Shown piece by piece: positions 3,521 through 64,000 of a stretch of DNA of 64,000 nucleotides. Below the pieces are notes generated by a model. That model ran no database searches. It had not been told where the DNA came from and saw nothing but the letters and a program-made list of their open reading frames with translations. The translations under genes and the position numbers were made by a program. Positions within the stretch are counted from its first letter, which is position 1, and the number at the start of each line of letters is the position of its first letter. The stretch comes from Chiloscyllium plagiosum (lineage: Eukaryota), in NCBI RefSeq assembly GCF_004010195.1, contig NC_057719.1, positions 33,644,767-33,708,766 of the forward strand. Direction: 5' to 3'.

Positions 3521-3624
3521 TAAGGGGATGATTTGGATTTTAATTCTCACCAAGCAATTGACAGTGAGTAAAGTAGTGCAACCATTCTGCTGACCACAGA
3601 GTAATACATAACAAACCTTACTGA

Positions 3625-3812
3625 AATAAAAACCAAAGTACAGTGGATGCTGAAATAAAAACAGAAAGTTCCTTTTAAACTTTACAGTAATTGTGAAGAC
3701 AGAAATAGAGTTAATATTTTGAATCCAATATGACTCAAAATATTAATTCTGCTTCTCTCTCTTCAGACGCTGCCAGACCGCCTGAATTTCTTCAGTGTTT
3801 TCAGTTGCTATT
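3625..3812. mobile_element. old Penelope-derived pLTR inverted-repeat element (degenerate)
   Basis: Imperfect inverted repeat (gagttaatattttga / tcaaaatattaattc) plus a gacgctgccagaccgcctgaatttcttcag tail resembling the PLE pLTR copies. Confidence 0.45.
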
Positions 3813-4830
3813 TAAAACCCTATTGATGAGTGGTTCCACCAATCAGAACATCAAATTTATTTCTCTGCCAACCCATGCAGGTTATGCTACTCTTCTTTGT
3901 GTATCCTACCACATTCAAGATAAATGGAATAAATACTTCATCAAACATTTACGCAAAAGGTGAACATGAGATTATGGTGATACATAATAGTAGCTTTCAA
4001 CCACAGCTTGGATGATGCATTCAAAACCTGAATAGTATGTGTTTAACTGCCAAAACTCTGTATCAATTAGAAATTCAATTTGGAACTCATTCGTTGAGTA
4101 TGCGATCCACATTGATGCCAGAATAACTACAAGAGTGTGTTTACAGTGTCTGCACTCCAATTATTGATCAATGTGTTTGCATACCACTACCTCAATAACA
4201 ATTGCAGGTAAGACAACATAAAATACAGTCAGTGTGAAAACAAGAATTGAATGCAAAATAGATGCAGTGGCAGCTTGGTTACAAAGTTGGCCAAGGGTCA
4301 AAAAAATCAGTGTGTAGTAATGAACAGTTGCTTCTCACTTTGGAAGGAACTATACTGTGGTTTTTCCCAGCAACTGTAGTAAGCTCATTGTTCTTTTTTT
4401 ATTTATATAGATGACCAGGAATTGGGTGTTAAAGGTATAATTTTTAGATATTTAAGATGATGACTTGGAAATGTAATAAACATTTGAAAAGACATAGACA
4501 GATGAAATAGGCAAATGGATGTGAAATTACATTTAATGCAGATAATATTTTGGTAGGAAAAGCAAGAACAAGCACTATGAATGAATTAATACAATTTTTG
4601 ACATGCTGCAAGAAAAGCGAAAGCTGAAAGTGTAAGTAGACAAATCCTCAAATGTGTTGGGATCAGATGAGAAGTGTGTTACAAAACAGATGGGATCCTT
4701 GGCTTTATTAACAAAGTCACAAAGTACATAAGTAGGTAAGTTATATTAAACCTTTATAAAACACCAGTCAGGATTCAATTGGAGTATTGTGTTCAATCCT
4801 GTGCACTACTCTTTAGGAAGGATGTTAAGG

Positions 4831-4968
4831 CTGTATTCCTGATGAAGGGCTTTTGCCCGAAACGTCGATTTTACTACTCCTTGGTTGCTGCCTGAACTGC
4901 TGCGCTTTTCCAGAACCATTAATCCAGAATCTGGTTTCCAGCATCTGCAGTCATTGTTTTTATCTAGA
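4831..4968 (+). mobile_element. Penelope-derived solo pLTR (family 1a) with minimal hammerhead motif
   Basis: Core ctgatga-a-gggc-tttt-gccc-gaaa-cg-tc at 4839-4866; direct repeat atgttaagg at 4822-4830 and 4969-4977. Confidence 0.85.
4839..4866 (+). ncRNA. minimal hammerhead ribozyme motif
   Basis: CUGAUGA, 4-bp stem II, GAAA, palindromic ACGU, GUC cleavage triplet. Confidence 0.75.
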
Positions 4969-11780: not shown

Positions 11781-12447
11781 CTGCAGCAGGAGACAATATG
11801 TTGACTGTCAAGGCGACACCTCCATTTCACGGCCTCCGTTTGGAGGGATGGGAAGTGGGAGTGGGGGGGGTAAAGATAATTAAATTCCATGAAACAAATG
11901 GCATCGCTTTTTCAAATCTTTCTCATTTCAAAGTTTAAGAATGCAACAACTCTCCTTGAGAATGAATCGCTGAATGTAGCAGTTACCGAGGCCTCTCTGT
12001 CTCTCTTTGGCAATGCTTTCCTGCCAGGGAAGAAATTACTTCCCTTCACTATCCTTAGCAAAAAAAATCTATGTCGGTTTTATTTGCACAAAGTCCCTCA
12101 ATCCAGTTGGCACAAAGTGCGATGGGAGTAAATAATGGGGAGGTTATTGGTGTTTAACAGTGACCCGCTCTCGGTGGGAGGGAGGGAGCTTGAGATTATT
12201 GCACTTTTCAAGCAAGCTCGAGATCAGAATGTCTCGTTGCCCCGCACTTTTAGTTTGGTGTCAGTTTCCTTTTTTTTTCCAAAAAAGAATTTTCCACACT
12301 TTGGAAACTTGGCGCTTAAACCCCGCGAATCGACCAGAAAAGAGCACCTTGACCAGTAAGCACTCCTCCGTGCCTCCTGTCGGTTTGGGGGCTCAGATTC
12401 TCAAGTTTGAAATCCCCCTTGGAGATAATGAGGTGCAAGTGGCTATT

Positions 12448-12647
12448 ACACACACACACAGACACACACACACAGACACACAGACAGACAGACACACACA
12501 CACAGAGACACACACAGACAGACACACACACAGACAGACACACACAGAGACACACACAGACACACAGAGACACACACACAGACAGACACACACAGACACA
12601 CACACACACAGACACACACACAGACAGACACACACACAGAGACACAC
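12448..12647. repeat. compound (CA)n/(CAGA)n microsatellite, ~200 bp
   Basis: Seen directly; it explains the THTD/VCVC ORFs. Confidence 0.95.
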
Positions 12648-13100
12648 GCTCTATCTGCATGGACACAATTCAGTTTCATATATCCTCAGATACAAGTGTT
12701 CCCACTGCACAACCCTGGTCACATCCAGTGTGTCTGAGTGAGACAGTGCACATATTCCACAGCTGCTCTGATCGCCTTGAAAGCGCTTTATCGGAGCTCC
12801 ACTTTAACGGGCCGGCGATTAAGCGCCGCGGTTTCAGTACTTTGCCATTTGAAGATCCGTGTTTGCATTTACCACAATGAAGTGACTCAGTGCAAACCAA
12901 CACATCAAACGGAATTCTACCTGCTGGAAGGGAAAACACAGACAGAGCTTTCAGGCCAGTGCTACCGGCTCACTTACTGGCTCAACGCGGCGCTAAATTG
13001 CTGCAAGTGTTGAGAAAAACGCCTCCGGCTTACAGTTAAAGGAGGACAATTTGGTACCCATCCCCAGAAAGGGGGAAATCGCTCCCGTTTGCAAACTCAC

Positions 13101-13330
13101 CGTAAACCCCCTGACCCGATACGCTTTCCAGTGCGAGTGTCAGTAGCCACAGCAGCAGACAAGCAAAATCCATCTTCACGTTGCTCTGAACATATCCGTT
13201 CTGTCAGCTCGCTCTGGGTACGGGGGTCCTCCGTTAGCGATGCCCCCTCTGCCAGTCCCGCGGGGGTGGGCGAGCGCAGGAAGACGGCCACACCAGCTCC
13301 CACTGATCGCCTGCTCTGGGCAGCACGGGC
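13101..13330 (-). other. candidate alternative first exon (5' boundary unknown)
   Basis: Strong donor ACG|GTGAGT at 13101/13100 inside the CpG island. Confidence 0.35.
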
Positions 13331-13490
13331 TGGCAGGCGTCGGCGGTTCAAGGCTCCGGGAGCCCGGTCAGAGCTGAGAGCAAAGCCATTGGAAAGCGGT
13401 CCGTCCGGGGAAAACGGGGGCTTTTTGCTGCTGCCCAAAGGGGTTGGGGGGGGGGGGGTGGGAGGGAGAAGAGCTGTCCAAGTAACTCAC

Positions 13491-13960
13491 GCCAAGCTCC
13501 CTGGAGAACGATTAACAAAAGCCTCTCGGTCACCGCTCAGCCACATCCATCCTTGTGCCAAGATCAGCAGCAGGCAGTAAAAAATCAAACAGCAAACTCC
13601 TGTGTCTATCGGATTTCAGCAGCTCCACATCAGGCTGGAACCTGTTTCCGTGGGAGGGGGGGTGGACTCGGCTCCAAGTAGCCGTCTGCCCCTCCTCTCT
13701 CGTAGCACAGAGAGAGAGGGCTGGATCCGCACAGCCAAACACACACACACCAAATCACTGAAACAAGAAGTTCTGGACGTGCAGAGAGAGACGCTGCTTC
13801 ACCGCTCGATCCGGGCTTAAAGGAGGCTGTGAAGATGTCACCGCGCAGGAGAGAGAGGGAGAGAGAGAGAGGAACAATCTTCCACAGCCGGCCCCTTCGC
13901 TGGGTGCTGCTGCTGCTGGGAGGGCGGGGGGAGGGCGGAGAGAGAGAGAGGGTCGGGATG
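13491..13960 (-). other. candidate first (5' UTR) exon (TSS approximate)
   Basis: Donor GGC|GTGAGT at 13491/13490; CT-rich leader; TAAATA-like motif at ~13974-13979 on the minus strand. Confidence 0.45.
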
Positions 13961-15449
13961 GGGGAAGAGTAGATATTTAGCGGAGCTGGAGAATCACGTT
14001 GCTCAGTACGTGCCCCCGATGCTGAGCATGGAGCTCGCCCACAGCCGGAGACGTACAGACTGCGTGATTGAAGCTCGTCAGCAGCAGAGGGAGAGCACAG
14101 TGGGAGTGAGCGAGGCCCCGCTCCCCTCTCCTTACCCGGCACCACCCCTCACACACACACACCGCGGCGCCCTCAGGCTAACCCCTCGGCCTTTTTCATA
14201 ACCGCACTGTTTCTCTCTGTCTCTCAGAAAACAGATTCCATTTGGGCACCTTCCTCATTAGCGATTGAGGAACGGTCGCAATTTAACTCGCGGGGGCCAA
14301 TTGGAAAACTTCAAAGTCCAACTGTGAACGAGGAGTGGAAAGGGAGTGAATCATCGCTGGTGGAGCCGGAGTTTTCTCTGACAGGGCCCGCGGGGTCTAA
14401 TGGTTTCTGGTTCCACATTCGGACCTGGGACTTTCGGTCCCGCTTTCAATCGCACCTGGGAGAAAACCTCACGAACAACAAGGAAAAAAAAAGCCAAACT
14501 TTTTGTTTTCCAAACGTTCAGCTGGGTACCTGGCCCACGTACATGTTCAACCAATCAAACTACCCAGAAGTATTTCCTGTGTCTCTGGGGTAGTACGCTG
14601 ACTTCCCCATTGGGACCAGACCTGACCGCGAGATGCAGGGGGTGCGGAGAGATTAGTGAAAGGGGACAGCTTCCTCCTACCCCAAACAATCCCAATACAG
14701 ACAAGCATCCTCATGGGAGGCGGTTGCAATCAACAGGAGCCAGGGATCATAGCCACCCTGCAGGTATCCTTGGTGGGCCGAGCTGGTTAAGCAGCAGTTC
14801 CCAACACACCAGTTGGTTCCAATATGAGAAGCTCTCCCAGTCCGTCCCCAATTCTAGGGTCAAGTATGAGATCATCGAGCCACTCCAGACCCTAAACTAT
14901 CACCTACGTCCAAGAAGGACAGCCAGTGTTTGGTTTCTGAGCTGGCCCACTGTTACACGATAGTTTCCCATCCTTCAGTGACAGATGACCTGATATTCAT
15001 GTCTCTCAAGCCGCATTCTACGCTCCTCCATTACATGAGTCCAGGTCCTCCTGTGGACAACATTTTAAAACAGCCGTGCCTGACCTTAGACTGCTGGATT
15101 CCCACTCTCCCGGCCGATCAGTCATTTGAACCCTTCCACTTTAGAAATCGCCCTTCTGCACCATCTCAGCTCCTTGACATTAGTCTCTGAAATTCTGCAA
15201 CATTAGATCAATGGGGCAAGGTGTGTCCAATTGTTCAGGAGGCCTGAGTGTTTCTGATTCTGATCAGGACACCTCTGGATAACCGTGGAATAGCCTTCTG
15301 GAATCTTCGATTGCCTGCAGGCAGGAGGTTCTTTGGCCCATCTTGTCTGCTTTTTTTTCTGTGTGTGAGCAATTCCCCAAGTGCCACTACCCTCCTCTCT
15401 AGGAGCTGCATTTTCCCCTTGTTCAGATAATGATGCAATTAGCTTTTTG

Positions 15450-16430
15450 AAAGCCCCATCTCACTTTCTGACAGATCTGTGATCCGCACCCGGTTGCCTG
15501 GAAAGAAAACAACTCCTCCATGTTGGCCACTGATCCATTTAGCATTGCTCTTAAACCTTTGCCCTGGATTCTGGAACCTTCCACCAACGAAAACAGCTTC
15601 TCCCTATCCATTTTATGCAGACTTCTCTTGCTTGTAAATACATCGATCAAATTCTCTGTCAACTTTCTTGTCTTCGAGGATAACAGTCTCAGTTTCTCTG
15701 AATCTTCTCATATAACTGAAATTCTTTGCACATGTGGTAAAAACAATGACTGCAGATGCTGGAAACCAGATCCTGGGTTAGTGGTGCTGGAAGAGCACAG
15801 CAGTTCAGGCAGCATCCCAGGAGCAGCGAAATCGACGTTTCGGGCAAAAGCCGTTCATCGTGGAGAAGGGCCTTTATTCCTGATGAAGGGCTTTTGCCCG
15901 AAACGTCGATTTCGAAGCTCCTTGGATGCTGCCTTAACTGCTGTGCTCTTCCAGCACCACTGATCCAGAATCTTTGCACATGTGACCATTCTCCTGGATT
16001 TTTTTGCCGTCCTCCGAACACCTTTACAACCTAAAGTGTGTGCTCAGAACAGGACACGGCTGGAACTGAACTTGTATGTTTATGCTGGTTTGATTGTAAG
16101 CTTGCTTTTGTACTCTATGCCACTTTTGGTGAAATCCAGGATGCTGTATGTTTTACAAACCGCGCTCTCCACCCGTCATGCAACTTCCAGGGGATTATAT
16201 GCATATGCACCCAGAATACCTCTGCTCCTGCACCTCCTTTAGAATTGCGATTTTTCTTTGATATTGTCTCTCCACATCCTTCCATTAAAATGAATCATTT
16301 CACACTTCTCTGCATTAATCTGCCATTTGGTCTGTCCATTCCACCGACCTGCGAATTCCCTTCTGAAGTTACCATCTTAATGGTTAATAGTACTTCCGAG
16401 TGTTGTCTCATCAGCACATTTTGAAATTGT
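15450..16430 (-). mobile_element. old CR1-like fragment hosting a PLE hairpin
   Basis: ORF 15423-15662 ENLIDVF...MDREKLFSLVEGSRIQG resembles the CR1 ORF2 C-terminus. Confidence 0.55.
15737..15970. mobile_element. Penelope-derived head-to-head pLTR hairpin (family 1a) with hammerhead motif
   Basis: Inverted arms of ~90 bp; intact core on + at 15880-15907; 14-bp TSD tctttgcacatgtg at 15723-15736 and 15971-15984. Confidence 0.9.
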
Positions 16431-23199: not shown

Positions 23200-24870
23200 A
23201 AGGGGCAGAATATTTACAGCCCAGGCCCACTGTATTTGACCCACTGTCGTTATGCCAGTTCAGGCAGACATTCCAGCCCTTGGCCTGTAGTCGTTTGGGT
23301 TTCAACAATTCAAATGTTATGAAATAAGGTAAATGGAATGAGGGTTTTTGCTTCTGTTACCATTTGAGCAAAAAGGACCAGACCATACCCAACAATTCTT
23401 GATTGCCACTCCACCACACCCACACCTCCACCATCATCACCTCGGTGTGATATTCCAAAATTCTTTTCACAACCAGTCTTTTCTGCCAATTATTTTAAAT
23501 TTCTGCCACTGGAAATGATATCTCTGCTAAGAGAAAAATTCTTTCCCATCCATTCAATCTAGACTATTGATCGTTTTATACATCTCATTTTAACAGCTCC
23601 TCAGACTCTTCTGCTTCAACATCTCCAATCTTTCTTCATAGCTAAGATTTTCCATCCTGCAAACATTCTCATAATTCTCTTCTGTCCCCTCTCTAGTGTC
23701 ATTGTCTTTTTCCTCTAATATGTGTCCAGAACTGTAGGTATTGGCCTGACTTGTGTTTTGTGCAGTTTGTAGTCTATTCTTTGTGCTCTGATATTCTATG
23801 CCTCAAATAAAAAAGGAAAATATCCCATTTACTTGGTTATTTATCCATCCTGCCACATTCAGCAATCTGCAGATATTTACTTCCAGGATGATCTACAGTT
23901 TCTCCGAATCCTATAATTTATTGCGCATTCCTTTGTCTTGTTTGCTGTCCTCAAGTGCATATTTGTTTGTGCCTTCATATACTGTTTTTCCTCATGGGAC
24001 ATAATGGAAAAGAATTGGAAGGATTAGTAAGCTGATTATCACCTTATTGAATTATATCATGAACATCTCTTTTGTCACCAATAAGTCTTGAAGTGGACTT
24101 TAACCTGAAGGCAAAAGTGAGGACTGCAGATGCTGGAGATTAGAGTTGAGAATGTGTTGCTGGAAAAGCACAGCAGGTCAGCCAGCATTCAGGGAGCAGG
24201 AGAATCGATGTTTCGGGCAAAAGCCCTTCATCAGGATTGATGATGAAGGACTCCTAATGGAGGACTTTTGTCTGAAGTGTTGATTCTCCTGCTCCTCGGA
24301 TGCTGTCTCACCTGCTGTACTTTTCCAGCACCACATTCTCGAATTTAACCTGAAGCTCCTGGCTCAGAGATAGAGAAATTACCAGTTAAGCCACAATGCT
24401 TCCTCCTCAAAACCATTCCATCACATTTCTTCAGATTGAATTCCTTTTGCCACTTTTCTATTCATCAGACCAACCCAATGCTGATACTCTTCAACTTTCA
24501 CCATCACCATCAATCACAGAACCAAGCTTTGAATCATCTGCTAACGTCTTACTTATGATCCAAGCATTTACAATAAATCATATGATAGAAAGACAGGACC
24601 ACGTACTGAGCTCTATGGACCTCTACGAGAAACAACCTTTCAATTACCAAAACAGGTTTTAAACATTACCCATAGCTTCCCGCCAATATGCCAATTTTGG
24701 ATGAATCTTGTCAATTACCCATCATCTTCTGTCATGAACTCTTACTTTCCTGATCAGTCTTCCATGTTAGAGCTTCACTAAAGCCTTACTAAAATAGTTG
24801 AAGACTGGACTGAGACATTACTCTTATTGAGCTTCCTTGTTATCTCCTCAAATATTTCAATTAAATTAGT
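23200..24870 (-). mobile_element. old degenerate CR1-like LINE with a nested SINE remnant and a PLE hairpin
   Basis: Decayed reverse-strand motifs (tccagaactgta, tcatctgctaac = FADD region). Confidence 0.45.
24111..24343. mobile_element. Penelope-derived pLTR hairpin (family 1b) with hammerhead motif
   Basis: Inverted arms; core on minus at 24207-24234; 12-bp TSD tttaacctgaag at 24099-24110 and 24344-24355. Confidence 0.88.
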
Positions 24871-27602: not shown

Positions 27603-30600
27603 CTCCTTACCAGGGGTAAGCCATGGAGTACAGGTCCCTGGCACAGAGTCTGTCCCTGTTGATCTGAAGGAAAGGGGGAGATGAGCAGAGCATTAGTCAT
27701 TGGGGACTCCATAGTTAGGGGGACAGACAGGAGATTCTGTGGGAATAAGAGAGACTCATGGTTGGTGCTTTGCCTCCCAGTTGTCTTGGATTGTGTTTTG
27801 GGGATCCTTGAGGGGGAGGGGGAGCAGCCCCAAGTCGTGGTCCTCATAGGTACTAACGAAATAGGTAGGAAAAGGATGGGAATTTATGGCAGAAATTCAG
27901 GGAGCTAGGGTGGAAGCTTCGTGCTAGAAAAAACAGAGTTTTCTCAGGTTTGTCACCTGTGCCACGTGCTCGCAATGTGAGGAATAAGGAGAGAGAGGAG
28001 TTGAACACGTGGCTGCAGGGATGGTGCAGGAGGAAGGGTTATGGATTCCTGGATAATTGGGGCTCATTCTGGGGTAGGTGGAACCTCTACAAACTGGATA
28101 GTGTACACCTGAACCAGAGGGGTACCAATATCCTGTGGGAGTGGGTGGAATTTCTTTGGTAGGGTTTAAACTAATTCAGCAGGGGGATGGGAACCTAAAT
28201 TGTAGCTCCAGTGTCCAGGAGTTGAGAGTGGTGAAATCAGAAATGAGGTTTCAAGGTCACAAGAGTTCACTGGCAAGCAGGAAGGTGGTTTGAAGTGTGT
28301 CTACTTCAACACCAGGAGTATCCGGAATAAGGTGGGTGAACTTGCAGCATGGGTTAGAACCTGCGACTTTGATATTATGGCCATTTTGGAGATATGGATA
28401 GAGTAGGGACTGGAATGGTTGTTGGGATTTAAATGTTTCAGTAAGAACAGTGAAGATGGTAAAAGAGGAGGAGGTGTGGCATTGTTAATCAAGGACAATA
28501 TTACGGTGGCAGAAAGGACGTTTGAGAACTCACCTACTGATGTAGTAAGGCTGGGGTTAGAAATCGGAAAGGAGAGGTCACCCTGTTGGGAGTTTTCTAT
28601 AGGCCTCCAAATAGTTCCAGAGATGTAGAGGAAAGAATAACAACAATAACTCTGGATAGGAGCGAGTAACAGAGTAGTTGTTATGGGTACTTTTAATTTT
28701 CCAAATATTGACTGGGAATTCTATAGTTGGAGGACTTTAGAAGGGTCAGTTTTTGTCCAATGTGTGCAGGAGAGTTTCCTGACATAGTATGTAGACAAGC
28801 CAACAAAGGGCGAGGCCCTACATTGGATTTGGTACTGGGTAATGAACTCAGCCAGGTGTTAGATTGGGAGGTAGGTGAACACTTTGGTGATAGTGACCAC
28901 AATTTGGTTATTTTTACTTTAGCAATGGAAAGTGGTAAGTATATACCACAGGGCAAGAGTATTTCTTGGGAAAGGTAATTATGATGTGATTAGGCAAGGT
29001 TTAGAATGCATAGAAGGGTGAAGGAAACTACAGGGGATGGGCACAATTGAAATGTGGAGCTTATTCACAGAATGGCTACTGTGTGTCCTTGAAAAGTATG
29101 TACCTGAAAGGCAGGGAGGAAGTGGTCGAGCGAGCAAACTGTGGTTTATTAAAGATGTTGAAACTCTTGTCAAGAGGAAGAAGAAGGCTCATGTTAGAAT
29201 GAGACATGAAGGCTTATTTAGGGCGCTTGAGAGTTACAAGTTAGCCAGGAAAGACCTAAAGAGAGAGCTAAGAAGAGCAAGAAGGAGACATGAGAAGTTG
29301 TTGGTGGACAGGATCAAGGAAATCCTAAAGCTTTCTATAGGTATAGCAGGAATAAAATGACTAGAGGAAGATTAGGCCCAATCAAGGATAATAGTGGGAA
29401 GTTGTGTGTGGAGTCTGAGGAGATGGGGAAGCACAAAAAAAATATTTTACTTCAGTATTCACACTGGAAAAATACATTGTTGTCGAGGAGAATATGAGAT
29501 ACAGGCNNNNNNNNNNNNNNNNNNNNNNNNNNNNNNNNNNNNNNNNNNNNNNNNNNNNNNNNNNNNNNNNNNNNNNNNNNNNNNNNNNNNNNNNNNNNNN
29601 NNNNNNNNNNNNNNNNNNNNNNNNNNNNNNNNNNNNNNNNNNNNNNNNNNNNNNNNNNNNNNNNNNNNNNNNNNNNNNNNNNNNNNNNNNNNNNNNNNNN
29701 NNNNNNNNNNNNNNNNNNNNNNNNNNNNNNNNNNNNNNNNNNNNNNNNNNNNNNNNNNNNNNNNNNNNNNNNNNNNNNNNNNNNNNNNNNNNNNNNNNNN
29801 NNNNNNNNNNNNNNNNNNNNNNNNNNNNNNNNNNNNNNNNNNNNNNNNNNNNNNNNNNNNNNNNNNNNNNNNNNNNNNNNNNNNNNNNNNNNNNNNNNNN
29901 NNNNNNNNNNNNNNNNNNNNNNNNNNNNNNNNNNNNNNNNNNNNNNNNNNNNNNNNNNNNNNNNNNNNNNNNNNNNNNNNNNNNNNNNNNNNNNNNNNNN
30001 NNNNNNGATAAGCTGCAGAGTTGGGCTGAAAGGTGGCAAATGGAGTTTAATGTGGAAAAGTGTGAGGTGATTCACTTTGGGAGGAGCAAAAGGAATAAAG
30101 AGTACTGGGCTAATAGTGAGATTCTTGGTAGTGTGGATAAGCAAAAATATCTCAGTCCCCATGAACATAGATCCTTGAAAGTTGCCAACCAGGTTGATAG
30201 GGTTGTTAAGAAAGCATACAGTGTGTTAGGCTTAATTGGTTGAGGGATTGAGTTTTGGAGCCATGAGGTCATGCTGCTGTACAAAACTCTGGTGCGGCCT
30301 CACTTGGAGTATTGTGTACAGTTCTGGTCACTGCATTATAGAAAGGATGTGGAATCATTGGAAAGGGTGCAGAGGAGATTTACTAGGATGTTGCCTGATA
30401 TGGAGGGAAGGTCAAATGAGGAAAGCCTGAGGGACTTGAGGCTGTTTTCATTCACTGTTGTTAGGTCACTTATTTGAGATATACAAGATAATCAGAGGGT
30501 TAGATAGGGTGGACAGTGAGAGCCCTTTTCCTCAGATGATGATGGCTAGCACATGGGGCCATAGCTTTAAATTGAGGGGTGATAAATATTGGACAGTTAT

Positions 30601-47892: not shown

Positions 47893-50492
47893 GTCTTCTT
47901 TTTTAGATTCTCTTGTACTTCACATCAATTCTAAGAGCATAGGAATAAGAAATCACTTACATCCAGGCATTTGCTAAATTCATCCTCATACTAATTGTTA
48001 GGCACTGTAAATGTATGACTGGAGTTAATGTTTGCTACATTGTTTTGTGGTGCAAGCACCATATAAACGTCTGCCAGAAATCATGTCAAGAACTTGAATA
48101 AAAATTCATAGACAGAAGTCATTTCATGACATGTGGTAAGAACATAAAAAAAGACACAGGACCCAAAACCCTTCAGCTCGTCAAGCTTGCTCTGCTGTTT
48201 AAATGAAATCATGACTAAATTTTTATCTCAAGGTCACCTTCCTGAACAATTGTTGTATTTCTTGATATTTTTTGTGTAAAATGTAACAATTTCTGTCTTG
48301 AATATTCTCAACAATTGAGTCTTTGCCACCCAACAGAGCAGAGAATTGAAAAAAAAATCACTGCTGTCTGAATGAAGAAATTCTTCCTCATCTCAGTCTC
48401 AAATGCGTCATCTGCTACTCTGTGATGGTGACTTCTGACCAGAAGAAGTATCCTTCCTGCACCTTCCCTGATGATCTTGTAAGAAATTGGAATACTGCAC
48501 CATTGTATGCTATTCCACACTTTGCTCCACATGTAATTTTCCTAAAAGGCACAAGTTTTATGAAAAAAAAACAATGGATTCATCTTTGTCAAGGACGGTT
48601 ATAATAACCATGACCACTGCAACTTCATTTGACAGTTTGAATCTATTTACAAAAGAAGTTCTTGTGATATGGTCAACATAGTCAGAGAAACATTCTATTC
48701 TAGTCTAGTCACTCCAAAGCTATTTAGAATTGGTCAGTCAGATATAGATCAGTCAGAGCTGCTTGATTTTCTTACCATAAAAGCCTTTATAGGTTTATGA
48801 CAAGCAGCAGCGTTTACCTCATCTGAAGTCTGTCTCAGTGAATATCTCTGTTTTAATTGTGCCACCTAGCAATGCTCAGCTCCCATCTTTGTCTGCCTTC
48901 ATCAGACACTCTCCTTTGAGACATGCTTTAAGAGTCTTGTGAAAAACATAAGAGCCATTCATTATAATAAAGTAACAGTCACCTCACTGTGCCAGGTACT
49001 CTCCTATATATCTACAGATCTCTGTGCAGAACATCTATACAGATGATATTTAATTTGAACAGATATACAAATGAACATACAAATTAGGAATTGGACATTC
49101 AGTCCCTTGAGTCTGCTTTGCCATTTGATAAGGTCACGGCTAATCTGATTGTGGCCTCAACCCTACTTTCTTAATGAGCCCTGATATTCTATGACTTTCC
49201 AGTCAATCAAGAGTCTATCTGACTCAGGTTTAGAAATATTGAATGACTTTACCCCCACCATCATAGAATCATAGAGTTATACAGTACAGGAACAGACCTT
49301 TCAGCCCAACTCGTCCATGCTGACCAGGTTTCCTAAATTGAACTAGTCTCATTTGCCTGCATTTGGCCCATATTACTTTAAACCTTTCTTATTCATGTGC
49401 ATGTCCAACTGTCTGTTCAGTGTTATAATTGTACCCATCTCTGGCAGTTCAATCTATATGTGCACCACCCTCTGCGTGAAAAAGCTGCCCCTCAGATGCC
49501 TTTAGATTTTTCCCTTCTCACCTTAAACCAATGACCTCTAGTTTTGAACTATGGAAAATATCTTGGCTATTCACCTTATCCATGTCCCTCATGATTTTAT
49601 AAATTTCTATAAGGTCAACCCTCAGCCTCCTACACTCCAGGGAAACATATCCCAGCCTATCCAGCCTCTCCTTATAACTCAAACTTTCCAGTCTTGGTAA
49701 CATGTTTAAAAATATTTTTTGCACTCTTTCCAGTTTAATCCTTTCAACAGCAGAGCGACCAGGATTCGAATTGTGATTGTGTACAGCCACAATATGACAT
49801 TCCAACTCCTGTACTCAATGCTCTAATCAATGAAGGCAAGTGTGTCAAATGTCTTCTTTACCATTTTCTTTACCTTTAATGCCACTTTCAAGGAACGATG
49901 CATCTATATCCCTAGGTCTCTCTGCTTGACAACACTCTCCAGGGCTCGACCATTAACTCCGTAAGTCTTCCCCTAGTTTGTCTTACTAAAATGCAACAAC
50001 TCACATAAATTAACCTCTATCTGCCATTCCTCAGCCAAATAGCCCAGTTAGTCATGATCCCATTGTATTCTTAAATACTCTTCTTCACTGTCTACTATAC
50101 CACCAACTTTGGTGTCATCTGAAAACTTATTAAGCATGCCTCTTATATTTTCATGTAAACCATTTACATAAATTACAAACAACTATGGACTCAGTACCAA
50201 TTCTCTCAGCACACCGCTGGTCACAGACCTCTAATCTGTACAACAACCCAGTACCATTAGCTTCTGTCTCCTACGTCAAGCCAATTTTGTACCCAGTTGG
50301 GTAGATCTCCCAGGATCCCATGTGATTTAACCTTCTTATGCAGAATGTTGTTGAAGGCCTTGCTACCATCCATGTAAACAACATCTACTGCTCTGTCTTC
50401 ATCTATCTTTTTGGTCACATCTTCCAAAAACTCAATCATATTTGTCAGACATGATTTCCCATGCACAAAACCATGCTGACTATTACTAATCA

Positions 50493-51135
50493 TGATGTGG
50501 GGGTGCCGGTGCTGGACAGGGTGGACAAAGTAAGAAGTCACCAGGTTATAGTTCAACAGTTTTATTTAAAATCACAAGCTTTTGAGGCACTGCTCCTTCA
50601 TCAGGTGAAGTGAAGGGATGCGCACAGGCACAGAATATATAGCTGAAAATGTGTTGCTGGAAAAGTGCAGCAGGTCAGGCAGCATCCAAGGAACAGGAGA
50701 ATCGACGTTTCGGGCATAAGCCCTTCTTCAGGAAAGGTTTTCCTGAAGAAGGGCTTATGCCCAAAACGTCGATTCTCCTGTTCCTTGGATGCTGCCTGAC
50801 CTGCTGCGCTTTTCCAGCAACACATTTTCAGCTCTGATCTCCAGCATCTGCAGCCCTCACTTTCTCTCACAGAATATATAGTCAGAGAGATAATAGCAAG
50901 ATAAATTCAGGTAATTAAGAGTGGAAGCAGATAATTACAAATAGTCTAAGTAGAGTGTCAACTGGCTGAATAGCAAGTCTTTGCAGGTTATCAAAAGTTT
51001 CAATAGCTTAATACAAATGGTGTGAGTGAAGTGTCAACAACTGAATAACAAGTGAACGGATGACCTATGAACTGATTAATTAAGACAGAGATAATTACAA
51101 ATAATCAAAAATAAGATGATGCTAGAGACAAACAT
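50493..51135 (-). mobile_element. Penelope-like family 2 3' region/pLTR with decayed hammerhead
   Basis: Minus strand 50573-50607 reads cac-ctgatga-a-ggagc-agt-gcctc-aaaa-gc-tt-gtg; homologous to 61397-61607; right boundary approximate. Confidence 0.7.
50643..50867. mobile_element. young Penelope-derived pLTR hairpin (family 1c) with hammerhead motif
   Basis: Near-perfect ~92-bp inverted repeat; intact core on minus at 50704-50731; 14-bp TSD cacagaatatatag at 50629-50642 and 50868-50881. Confidence 0.92.
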
Positions 51136-57756: not shown

Positions 57757-58250
57757 GGTGAGAGGGTAATGATTTAAAAGGGACCTGAAGGGCAACTTTT
57801 TCACACAGAAATTGGTGTTTTTGTGGAACGAATTACCAGAGAAAATGGTAGAGGTGAGTACAGTTACAAGATGTAAAAGATATTTTGACAGGTACATGGA
57901 TAGGAAAGATTTAGAGGGATATGCTGAAAATGTGTTGCTGGAAAAGCGCAGCAGGTCAGGCAGCATCCAAGGAATAGGAGAATCGACGTTTCGGGCATAA
58001 GCCCTTCTTCAGCCCTTCTTCGGGCTTATGCCCGAAATGTCAATTCTCCTGTTCCTTGGATGCTGACTGACCTGCTGCGCTTTTCCAGCAACACATTTTC
58101 AGCTCTGATCTACAGCATCTGCAGTCCTCACTTTCTCCTAGAGGGATATGCGCCAAACACAGGCAAATGGGACTAGTTCAGTTTAGGAAAACTTCTCAGC
58201 ATGGACAAGTTGGACCAAAGGGCTGTTCTGAGCTGTGTACCTCTATAACA
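57757..58250 (+). mobile_element. CR1 3' end fragment hosting a PLE hairpin
   Basis: ggtgagagggtaatgatttaaaagggacctgaagggcaactttttcacacaga through the tail gctgtgtacctctata. Confidence 0.85.
57925..58138. mobile_element. Penelope-derived pLTR hairpin (family 1c) with hammerhead motif
   Basis: Inverted arms; intact core on minus at 57985-58012; 13-bp TSD tagagggatatgc at 57912-57924 and 58139-58151. Confidence 0.92.
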
Positions 58251-60612: not shown

Positions 60613-61396
60613 AAGGAATATATTTTCAAATTCTGTCTGCTATAATTGCACTATTGGATTCGCAAACTGCTCCATTTACCACTACCTCTACTCACTGAGC
60701 AACAATCTCTATTAACCACTGCTCATGCTTCTCTCTTATAGCCTCACTTCATATTCACACACACAGTTATGCTGCAAGTTCGCACCTATATCTCACAGCT
60801 TGTACAACTGTTCAACTACCAAAGGAATAACTCCCAAACAGATTATACCACATTCACTCTCTCCCCCTATCTCCAGGACACATTGGTAATGACCAGAATC
60901 AACAGCTCATTGATGCATGTCCTCATGCAAGGAAAAATGCTCACCCACTTCTTCTGATTTAAAAGCTGTGGATGGAGTAAACAATAAACTTGGTCGTCCC
61001 ACCTTGCCTCACCAAAACCCCATCCTCAAGCATTTCACTTTTCAAATGTCGAAAAAAGAACTGTCACCTGGCTAAGCAATAATTCTGAAGCAAGGCAGAG
61101 GAGAAAGAAAAGATGCTTATGAAGAAAGACTGTCACTGAATCTCATATTCACAATCGCCAGCTCAGATATCAACACTGAATAATTTAGAACCTGGCCCTT
61201 CGATAGGATCTGCAGATAATGTGAATACTGGGCATTGGTAGCCTGCAATCAGGGAGAGAGGGCGGGGAGAAGGATAGTACAGCTCTCAGCTAGCCAGGTA
61301 ACAAAGTCAAATGGTGGTTCTGCTGTAGGCTACTCAGGTATAGACTTAGAGGTACATAAAAAGGCTGCTGGGTATAGGTATTGAAATGCTTGATGT

Positions 61397-61607
61397 CTTG
61401 ATGTGGAGGTGCCTGTGTTGGACTGGGGTGGACAAAGGTAGAAATCACACGACACCAGGTTATAGGCCAACAGATTTATTTGAAATCACAAACTTTCAGA
61501 GCTCTGCTGCTTTGTTACTTCACCTCATGAAGGAGCAGAACTCTGAAAGCTTGTGATTTCTAATAAACTTGTTAGACTATAACCTGGTGTCATGTGACTT
61601 TTGGCTT
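61397..61607. mobile_element. Penelope-like family 2 pLTR hairpin with decayed hammerhead
   Basis: Inverted arms (gacaccaggttata / tataacctggtgtc); core cac-ctcatga-a-ggag..ctct-gaaa-gc-tt-gtg at 61521-61555; 10-bp TSD tgcttgatgt at 61387-61396 and 61608-61617. Confidence 0.82.
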
Positions 61608-61809
61608 TGCTTGATGTATTGGCATGTCTGACAGAAACTCACAGTGACTGGCAAGAACCTTAAAGGACAAGCACAAAACTTTATGCACTTTGTTTACAGC
61701 ATAATATTGCATAATCTCATCCAAATTGGTTGCCAAACTTTCAAATGTGTTTAGGCTAGAATCATGGCTGCCATTCCAATAACTTGGAGCTTCTTACAGG
61801 TGTCCTGCC

Positions 61810-61947
61810 TGTATTCCTGATGAAGGGCTTTTGCCCGAAACGTCAATTTTATTGCTCCTCGGATGCTGCCTGAATTGCTGTGCTTTTCCAGCACCACTAA
61901 TTCAGAATCTGGTTTCGAGCATCTGCAGTCATTGTTTTTAACCTAGC
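61810..61947 (+). mobile_element. Penelope-derived solo pLTR (family 1a) with hammerhead motif
   Basis: Same ends as 4831-4968; intact core at 61817-61844; imperfect TSD tgtcc(t/a)gcc. Confidence 0.85.
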
Positions 61948-62565: not shown

Positions 62566-62947
62566 ACAGTGTAACACTGTGTTGGAGCACCAGGACTTTT
62601 AAAGGCACTAAGAGCAAGTGAAAGGGTGATCAAGTTGATTTTTTTTAATAGAATAATCACCACTGTGATTTCTAAAGCTGGTTTAGGAATTTAGTTTCAT
62701 GGTGGTTTTTCTTTCAGTGTAGTGGTCAAGAGGGTTCTGGTACTTTTTTCAATCATCTAGGTTAGATGTGTTATGGCACACCTCTGGAGCAGATACCATT
62801 GAACCCAAACCTAAGTAGGGACACAACCACACCACCACAACAGCCCTGCATCAAGAGGATTCAATGATGGGTTGCAACAAAGTGTACATATTGTAATTGA
62901 TGATTGCAAAATTGGATTTGTCTGCACTAGAATGACACTTGGATGAA

Positions 62948-63757
62948 GGCCAAGAGTGTGGTGCTGGAAAAGCACAGCAGGCCAGGCAGCATCCGAGGAG
63001 CAGGAAAATCAATATTTTGGGCAAAAGCCCTTCATCAGGAAGGAGGTTGGTAGTCTCGGGCGTGGAGAGATAAATGGGAGGGGAGTAGGGCTGGGGGTCT
63101 GAGTGCAATAGGTGGATGACGGTGGCGGTAAAGGTGATAGGTCGTAGGAGAGGGTGGTGTGGATAGGTGGGAAGGAAGATGGGACAGGTCATGTGGACGG
63201 TGCTGAGCTGGAAGGTTGGAATTGGGGTAAGATGGGGGGAGGGGAAATGAAAAAATAGTGAAATCCACATTGATGCTTTGGGATTGGAGGGTCCCAAGGC
63301 AGAAGATGAGGCATTCTTCCTCTAGGCGTTGGTGGTAAGGGAGTGGTGATGGAGGAGGCCTATGTCCTTGGCAGAGTGGGGGGAGAGGGTGCGGTGTTAA
63401 AGTGTTCGGTCACGGGGTGGTGGGGTTGATTGATGTCCTGGAGATGTTTTCTGAAGCACGCTGCGAGTAGGCATCCTGTCTCCCCCAATGTAGAGGAGAT
63501 CACGTCAGTAGCAATGGATACAATAAATGATATGTGTTGAAGTGCGGGTGAAACTTTGATGGATGTGGAAGGCTCCTTTAGTGCATTGGACAGAGGTGAG
63601 GGGGGAGGTGTGAGTGCAGATTTTGCAATTCCTGTGGTGACAGGGGAAGGTGCCATGAGGGGAGGGTGGGTTGTTGGGGGGCGTGGACTTGATGAGGTAG
63701 TCACAGAGGGAACAGTCTTTATGGAAGGCGGATGGAGTAGGGATGGAAATATATCTC
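62948..63757 (-). mobile_element. 5'-truncated Penelope-like retroelement: GIY-YIG endonuclease remnant plus 3' pLTR
   Basis: GTFPCHHRNCKIC...IIYCIHC...LLYIG/ETG...FRKHL...HPVTEHFN; pLTR with decayed hammerhead at ~63011-63038; 15-bp TSD tgacacttggatgaa at 62933-62947 and 63758-63772. Confidence 0.9.
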
Positions 63758-64000
63758 TGACACTTGGATGAACCAATTGCACACTGCCCCGCTGGAAAAT
63801 TAGTTTCTTTTTTTCTGTTTCTTCCTCCTCCTTCACTTTCTCTTTCTGAGTTCATCAGAGCGTGTCTGTTGAGAATGAGGCTATACAGACTGGAGCAGGC
63901 CATGATGGACTATCATAGAGACAGGATGGCAGTGTTGCTCAAGTGTCTGAGTGGTCTACCAGATGATGTTTCTTGTTGCAGCTTGGCTCTCGTTATATGA

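Follow-up and report, generated by a model that had tools for sequence, protein, structure and literature searches.

How does a Penelope-like element (PLE) come to insert two copies of its own end, head to head, within a single TSD? Among mobile elements, PLEs have the enzymes most closely related to telomerase. The way in which PLEs make tandem and inverted insertions has been described as undefined (PMC8557442). A 64-kb stretch of Chiloscyllium plagiosum DNA, the whole of which we call the window, contains several short insertions of this kind, and a sequence-only reading had attributed them to reverse transcription primed at both staggered nicks of the target. We asked which features of these hairpins bear on that idea and which fit other routes equally well.

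Hairpin insertions and their parent element

An inverted-repeat search of the window recovered all five of the hairpins picked out by the sequence-only reading, head-to-head insertions (H1 to H5) whose arms of 80-110 nt are 78-98% complementary. They are the sole inverted-repeat pairs in the 64 kb with arms of at least 40 nt at a spacing of at most 600 nt. In a fold-back scan of the same window they scored 206-370 and everything else at most 86; nine other places with scores of 58-86 had no clear arm structure on inspection. Each hairpin is surrounded by an exact TSD, which measures 14 nt in H1 (15723..15736 and 15971..15984, plus strand), 12 nt in H2 (24099..24355; TSD at 24099-24110 and 24344-24355), 14 nt in H3 (50629..50881; 50629-50642 and 50868-50881), 13 nt in H4 (57912..58151; 57912-57924 and 58139-58151) and 10 nt in H5 (61387..61617; 61387-61396 and 61608-61617). 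In all five, an antisense arm lies on the left and a sense arm on the right, the ribozyme ends face the centre, and both 3' ends face the TSD, an arrangement common to dual priming and fold-back. One arm of each hairpin carries a full 3' tail of 34-37 nt and the other is tail-less. This layout had been read correctly from the letters, as had its kinship with the inverted pLTRs of PLEs, for which an inverted copy plus tail has already been published. A sixth, decayed hairpin had been overlooked: H6 (3613..3826), of a different hammerhead-like family, has a long left arm and a short right arm at ~3625-3814 and a candidate TSD (3613-3624 and 3815-3826, matching at 10 of 12 positions). Elsewhere, the window holds a G+C-rich stretch at 12000-15000 (0.50-0.53), a possible gene promoter island, an (AC)n-rich array at ~12450-12650, and a 500-base run of N at ~29500-30000.

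H1 to H4 belong to one family (A), with three subfamilies, and H5 to a second family (B). Four single-arm copies accompany them. With positions numbered from C3 of the hammerhead core as +1, M1 (4831..4968, plus strand) is a single tailed A1 arm running from -8 to +129, with a TSD of 9 nt exact or 12 nt with one mismatch, and M2 (61805..61947, plus strand) is a similar A1 arm running from ~-12 to +130, with a 12-nt TSD containing two mismatches. The tailed family B arm B2 (50491..50628, minus strand) served as the reference for bases upstream of the H5 core; a TSD was looked for at B2 and none was found. The fourth copy, M3 (62933..63776, minus strand), is 5'-truncated within its ORF and runs upstream into a broken reading frame with a Cys-rich linker and a GIY-YIG remnant (~63741-63151, by tblastn). 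This piece is 70% identical to the bamboo-shark protein P0002 over 99% of 78 aa, and P0002 in turn has matches to RVT_1 (E 0.008) and GIY-YIG (E 2.5e-4), both short of the Pfam cut-offs. A Cys motif is seen in P0001 and P0002. A direct Pfam scan of the broken M3 ORF pieces found no domain, and the Atlas lead for this remnant is a weak GIY-YIG (0.86, 10% of members). Because M3 continues into an RT/GIY-YIG-like frame, the hairpin arms are the pLTR ends of an endonuclease-bearing (EN+) PLE. The predicted placement of such an end downstream of an RT and GIY-YIG ORF holds for family A only; no family B copy in the window is linked to an ORF.

In both families the hammerhead is of the minimal type I, an extra base precedes stem II and stem III is palindromic, as judged by a motif scan and a stem II fold; Rfam at its gathering cut-off gave no match to the hammerhead arms. 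Family A is very abundant, with 91,080 and 67,982 contig pieces from two runs aligning to the H3 long arm. The same arm attracted 3,213 reads in one RNA run and 0 in a fourth run (X22), and no pile-up of molecule ends on it was seen among the matches listed. A pattern scan for further copies returned 0 in viral contigs and, for family A, 0 in metagenomes; four family B metagenome matches were dropped as chance, the match being confined to the 24-25-nt pattern. We conclude that the structure is real and of a known type, a truncated pLTR insertion of a PLE.

Two end positions and the junctions with the target

The outer ends of the arms fall at two places. The short arms of H1 (15870..15973, plus strand, to +91..+94, with an intact minimal hammerhead core starting at 15880), H2 (24252-24342, plus strand, to +89), H3 (50641-50735, minus strand, to +89..+91) and H4 (57923-58012, minus strand, to +88..+90) end together with M3 (+88..+91) within +88..+94, a span of 7 nt, and a spread this narrow has a chance frequency of 1e-4 to 1e-3. 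The short arm of H5, in family B, ends at +84..+86 (61517-61609, plus strand). The long ends of six family A arms lie at +124..+130, including those of H1 (15737..15859, minus strand, A1, from ~+125/126), H3 (50739-50867, plus strand, to +124/125) and H4 (58022-58141, plus strand, to +125..+128). The two end positions are therefore ~36 nt apart, with a tail of 30-40 nt at one end only. M3 ends at the short site, has an exact 15-nt TSD (62933-62947 and 63758-63772) and lacks an inverted arm; an insertion can therefore begin at the short site.

Alignment of contigs and reads to the H3 long arm gave a compatible picture, with both end clusters appearing again. The largest loose end lay at +124 and continued as CTAG, which is why TAG at the H4 long end counts as a 3-nt overlap. 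Other loose ends at +81..+86 showed ~10 element-like letters followed by A+T-rich sequence, in line with the short-end cluster; subfamily differences also break alignments there. If each arm had chosen its site freely, the pairing of one long and one short end in five of five hairpins would have P = 0.03 or 0.007. On the inner side, M1 and M2 terminate where hairpin arms do, at -8 to -12 (4831, 61805, 15870), which points to either an RNA 5' end or a strong enzyme stop.

The sequence-only reading had rested its case for priming at both nicks on bases that the short arm shares with the TSD in four hairpins, and these overlaps are present as described (TCT at 15971, the last 3 nt of the H1 short arm; AG at 50641; GC at 57923; TG at 61608). 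From H1 to H5 the short-end overlaps measure 3, 0, 2, 2 and 2 nt, where the null mean is 0.70 (P = 0.027 for a sum of at least 9; P = 0.0035 for at least four of five with at least 2 nt). The excess over chance (P 0.003-0.03, n = 5), although genuine, is modest in size and was singled out post hoc. The overlaps at the tailed ends, which had been passed over, are 1, 2, 0, 3 and 0 nt (P = 0.17). At the left junction of H5 (61387-61404), 8 nt are duplicated in tandem, and the last 6 of them match the end of the element tail; with this duplication discounted, the H5 tailed-end overlap becomes 6 nt, the tailed sum 12 and P = 0.003. By eye, the H2 TSD at 24344-24355 matches the continuation of the element (+91..+102) at 8 of 12 positions, perhaps a longer imperfect pairing with the RNA. 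We reject the microhomology as proof of double priming. Both models predict overlap, since under fold-back, too, the cDNA end has to pair with the second overhang; double priming remains the best reading, on other grounds than the one originally offered.

Proposed priming at both nicks and its alternatives

The explanation that we favor, and consider probable though well short of certain, is that the hairpins are truncated EN+ PLE insertions, produced when target-primed reverse transcription began at both ends of a staggered cut. The element protein would cut both strands and leave 3' overhangs. One overhang would prime at the outer start site (~+124..+130) and the second at the inner site (~+88..+94), often aided by 1-3 paired bases. 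Both cDNAs would be extended along an uncleaved RNA as far as the vicinity of the hammerhead core's 5' edge. The two cDNA ends would then be joined, in some cases following a brief slip in which +12..+1 is copied again. Support comes from the fixed short site, which M3 also uses, and from the non-nested arms of H4, H5 and probably H1. The base is small, six junctions including that of the decayed H6, and the joints suggest, without proving, that copying began from both cut target ends.

A self-priming fold-back is the published reading of head-to-head PLE junctions (PMC3846280), and we regard it as unlikely here while treating it as the most serious alternative. A single nick would prime the outer-site cDNA, whose 3' end would fold near the hammerhead, copy itself and stop before the tail; the new end would then anneal to the second overhang by microhomology. 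In a variant, an antisense RNA self-primes, as in rotifer Penelopes. This route explains why both arms come from the same subfamily (5/5), why a long arm is paired with a short one and why the short ends show microhomology, but it gives no reason for M3, which has no inverted arm, to end at the same short site. It also makes a prediction about the inner ends: under self-priming one arm is copied from the other, and one must therefore be nested in the other.

The tail is unique to the long arm in all hairpins compared, and it is the inner ends that bear on this prediction. The short arm of H4 reaches +1 and its long arm only +9, so that the long arm lacks +1..+8. The H5 short arm extends to -7, in agreement with B2, whereas the long arm (~61397-61517, minus strand) reaches +2 at most, leaving -7..+1 to the short arm alone. 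The short arm of H1 extends to -10, as M2 bears out. The long arm of H1 stops at +3, or at ~-9 in an alignment that permits an insertion, a deletion and mismatches. Because each arm holds bases that the other lacks in H4, H5 and probably H1, neither arm there would have templated the other. Two hairpins behave as self-priming would have it. H2 is nested, its long arm (24111-24239, minus strand, reaching ~-5) extending ~3 nt further than the short arm (-2), and H6 is nested and joined through a shared 5-nt stem-II-like repeat with the loop in the long arm. The H6 junction fits fold-back, though two annealing cDNA ends would rely on that stem as well. H3, a young copy with arms 98% alike, is likewise compatible; its inner ends are symmetric at -3/-4, or the short arm reaches further, depending on upstream bases absent from the window. 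Across the six hairpins, two are thus clearly non-nested, one probably so, one symmetric or ambiguous (H3) and two nested (H2, H6).

Palindrome centres are unstable, and remodeling or deletion of the centre after insertion may mimic non-nesting. Such later change is possible because in H2 and in H5 one arm is heavily mutated beside the centre; in the right arm of H2 (24254-24283), 8 of 30 sites are changed compared to 1 of 30 in the other arm. More generally, one arm of the older hairpins has a cluster of changes, mostly transitions, beside the centre (24254-24283, 61505-61517, 15850-15862). The centres themselves differ among all five hairpins, and that of H3 is 3 nt long. Neither outcome named in advance by the sequence-only reading as refuting it, uniform arm ends and spacers or microhomology at chance level, was therefore observed. 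Three of them contain an extra copy from +1..+13, each in the short-arm orientation: an exact copy of +12..+3 in H4 (58012-58021; 10/10, P = 0.004), a 12-nt copy of +1..+12 in H2 (24240-24251; 10/12, P = 0.03) and, in H1 (15860..15869, plus strand), a best match of 9/12 to +2..+13 (P = 0.15, not significant alone). We infer that these copies arose by a slip of the short-arm cDNA ahead of end-joining. A similar switch, by the second enzyme, has been reported for L1 (PMC11702581).

The least certain part of double priming is the template. Each of the ten arms begins at +9 or further upstream, and all ten extend upstream of the predicted ribozyme cut, which the hammerhead consensus places after +28; this had been overlooked. 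Arms copied through the predicted cut imply that the template RNA would have been uncleaved or religated. We tentatively lean toward one RNA read twice, a quite possible arrangement in which the leading enzyme starts from the inner site and a trailing one displaces its cDNA. One RNA with two start sites would give the long and short arms if the trailing enzyme displaces the leading cDNA, and the same model also predicts a further-reaching short arm and tail-only inversions. Strand displacement by the PLE enzyme is assumed; enzymes related to PLE enzymes displace strands, and PLE enzymes are not known to possess RNase H. Two RNAs, or a tandem or circular RNA, as the sequence-only reading proposed, could also have served, which we think rather less probable. 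Two RNA copies are not needed, as one RNA read twice explains long plus short, and two free RNAs are disfavored because they do not predict that pairing in five of five hairpins. None of the four family A hairpins compared has arms from two clearly different subfamilies. Both arms of H1, H3 and H4 match their own subfamily; heterologous arms were considered for H2 but not demonstrated, its arms differing at 15 of 80 sites while having other marks in common.

The joints found in contigs and reads bear on the same question. Among the matches listed (15 of 61 rows), five rows are opposite-strand joints to a 33-35-letter tail piece, found in nine contigs of X1, six of X16 and two reads, with the proviso that X1 and X16 may share loci; one such joint, in 2+1 contigs, has 4-5 shared letters. 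As a lead, these tail-only joints could be the form without overlap that twin priming on one RNA should leave, or they may be later deletions or clipped alignments. No centre-to-centre joint occurs among the matches listed (15 of 61 rows). Separately, tail-to-tail joints (50828/50834 with 50866) connect a long end to a short end in opposite orientation in 15 contigs of X1 and 11 of X16, and could be tandem hairpin units, target re-use or circles. A few joints run backwards, leaving the element close to its short end (50824) and re-entering it at the 5' edge of the core (50740), much as a tandem or circular unit of ~90 nt would give.

Taken further, double priming might make the inverted pLTR a programmed product, with a protein dimer holding the two target ends on two sites ~36 nt apart on one RNA. 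The inner-site enzyme would run ahead, and the outer-site enzyme would follow and displace its cDNA. We offer this as a conjecture that is somewhat improbable as a whole. If it is true, the tail, the inverted copy and the short stubs are one mechanism, replacing the published self-priming model, and this shark-type genome would offer many thousands of readable junctions as proof.

The more specific proposal that the hammerhead palindrome holds an RNA dimer fared poorly. Here, two RNAs joined through palindromic stem III would each be primed at one nick. The minimal type I core and palindromic stem III of both families suit such a dimer, minimal motifs of this kind are known to work as dimers (PMC4209133), and priming of two RNAs at one site has been proposed and observed for L1 (PMC2837659; PMC11702581). 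However, the homodimer gain of -7 to -11.5 kcal/mol, computed for four units, is equalled by 14-63% of shuffles, and the family A palindrome alone yields -3.1 kcal/mol. It is as a dimer that the ribozyme cleaves, yet every one of the ten arms passes the predicted cut, and two free RNAs fail to predict the invariant long and short arms. In addition, ribozyme core mutants, with catalysis mutated and the palindrome intact, did not alter insertion in vitro (PMC11167929). We consider the dimer very unlikely, and it makes up the minor part of the probability given to two, tandem or circular RNAs.

Still less probable is a two-step origin, in which a single-arm insertion receives a second insertion at its 5' edge or a repair-made inverted duplication. 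PLEs are reported to insert in or beside their own copies (PMC6765202, PMC11167929), and H3 itself sits 25 nt from the hammerhead core of B2 (window positions 50604-50629); against this, one TSD brackets the whole hairpin in five of five cases, no second TSD was found, and the two arms of young hairpins resemble one another no less than they resemble any sister copy. The idea that the hairpin is itself mobile, a master hairpin or MITE-like unit copied whole, is the least probable of all and largely refuted, for while H3 and H4 agree at 95-98% in their arms and have short ends at almost the same position, the five centres all differ (those of H3 and H4 included), there are four subfamilies and TSDs of 10-14 nt, the outer ends are not terminal inverted repeats, and single-arm copies have the same ends. 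A MITE was likewise rejected on the unpaired tail of 34-37 nt at one end, the variable TSD and the differing centres.

The structure itself is ordinary, and our mechanistic reading of it is plausible, testable and different from the published one. The value of such hairpins lies in being a test bed of short, abundant, TSD-bounded junctions, in which nesting separates self-priming from both-nick priming and the count of long and short pairs separates one RNA from two.

Relation to known systems

An inverted pLTR with a one-sided tail is the canonical layout of EN+ PLEs (PMC3846280; PMC8557442). The hairpins share with it the head-to-head copies in one TSD, the tail of 30-40 nt at one end, the hammerhead and the palindromic junction; they differ in that the arms are only 85-135 nt long with no ORF between them. 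The parent element may be Neptune-like, going by its Cys-rich linker and the account of Neptune in PMC8557442; this linker sets it apart from the Anolis element discussed below. The authors of PMC3846280 read such junctions as self-priming, which two junctions here contradict. Our literature search, incomplete for subscription papers including several PLE reviews, found no stated both-nick origin for PLE inversion, and the accessible parts of PMC7229834, PMC2377424 and a retrozyme preprint (10.64898/2026.07.22.740005) yielded nothing on inversion.

The hammerheads resemble those of metazoan PLEs and non-LTR retrozymes in their core, the extra base before stem II and the palindromic stem III (PMC4209133; 10.64898/2026.07.22.740005), and Schistosoma has hammerhead pairs on opposite strands 100-700 bp apart (PMC4209133). 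Retrozymes differ in being head-to-tail tandem hammerhead units. We rejected a non-LTR retrozyme as the source, as no head-to-tail tandem copies occur among the family A or B matches in the window.

The closest experimental parallel is Poseidon of Anolis (PAc), whose protein is a predicted dimer (PMC11167929). In vitro, both target strands were cleaved and extended, two internal start sites bounded the 30-40-nt tail, and uncleaved RNA was used (PMC11167929). The hairpins agree with PAc on all three counts, the two start sites bounding the tail, the use of both strands and the uncleaved RNA. PAc start sites are reported as non-homologous to the cut DNA, whereas overlaps of 1-3 nt are found here, and as no different between strands (PMC11167929); this weighs against our reading in that it does not by itself yield the long and short rule. 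In its accessible parts, that paper was not found to link two-strand extension to inverted copies.

Twin or dual priming in L1, in which both nicks are primed, the cDNAs lie head to head and the TSD is kept (PMC2837659; PMC11702581), is the other close relative. It shares with our hairpins the microhomology at the second priming site and an end-joined centre with small duplications or inserts. The second site in L1 is variable and the two pieces hardly overlap, whereas here the second site is constant and the two arms have 75-95 nt in common.
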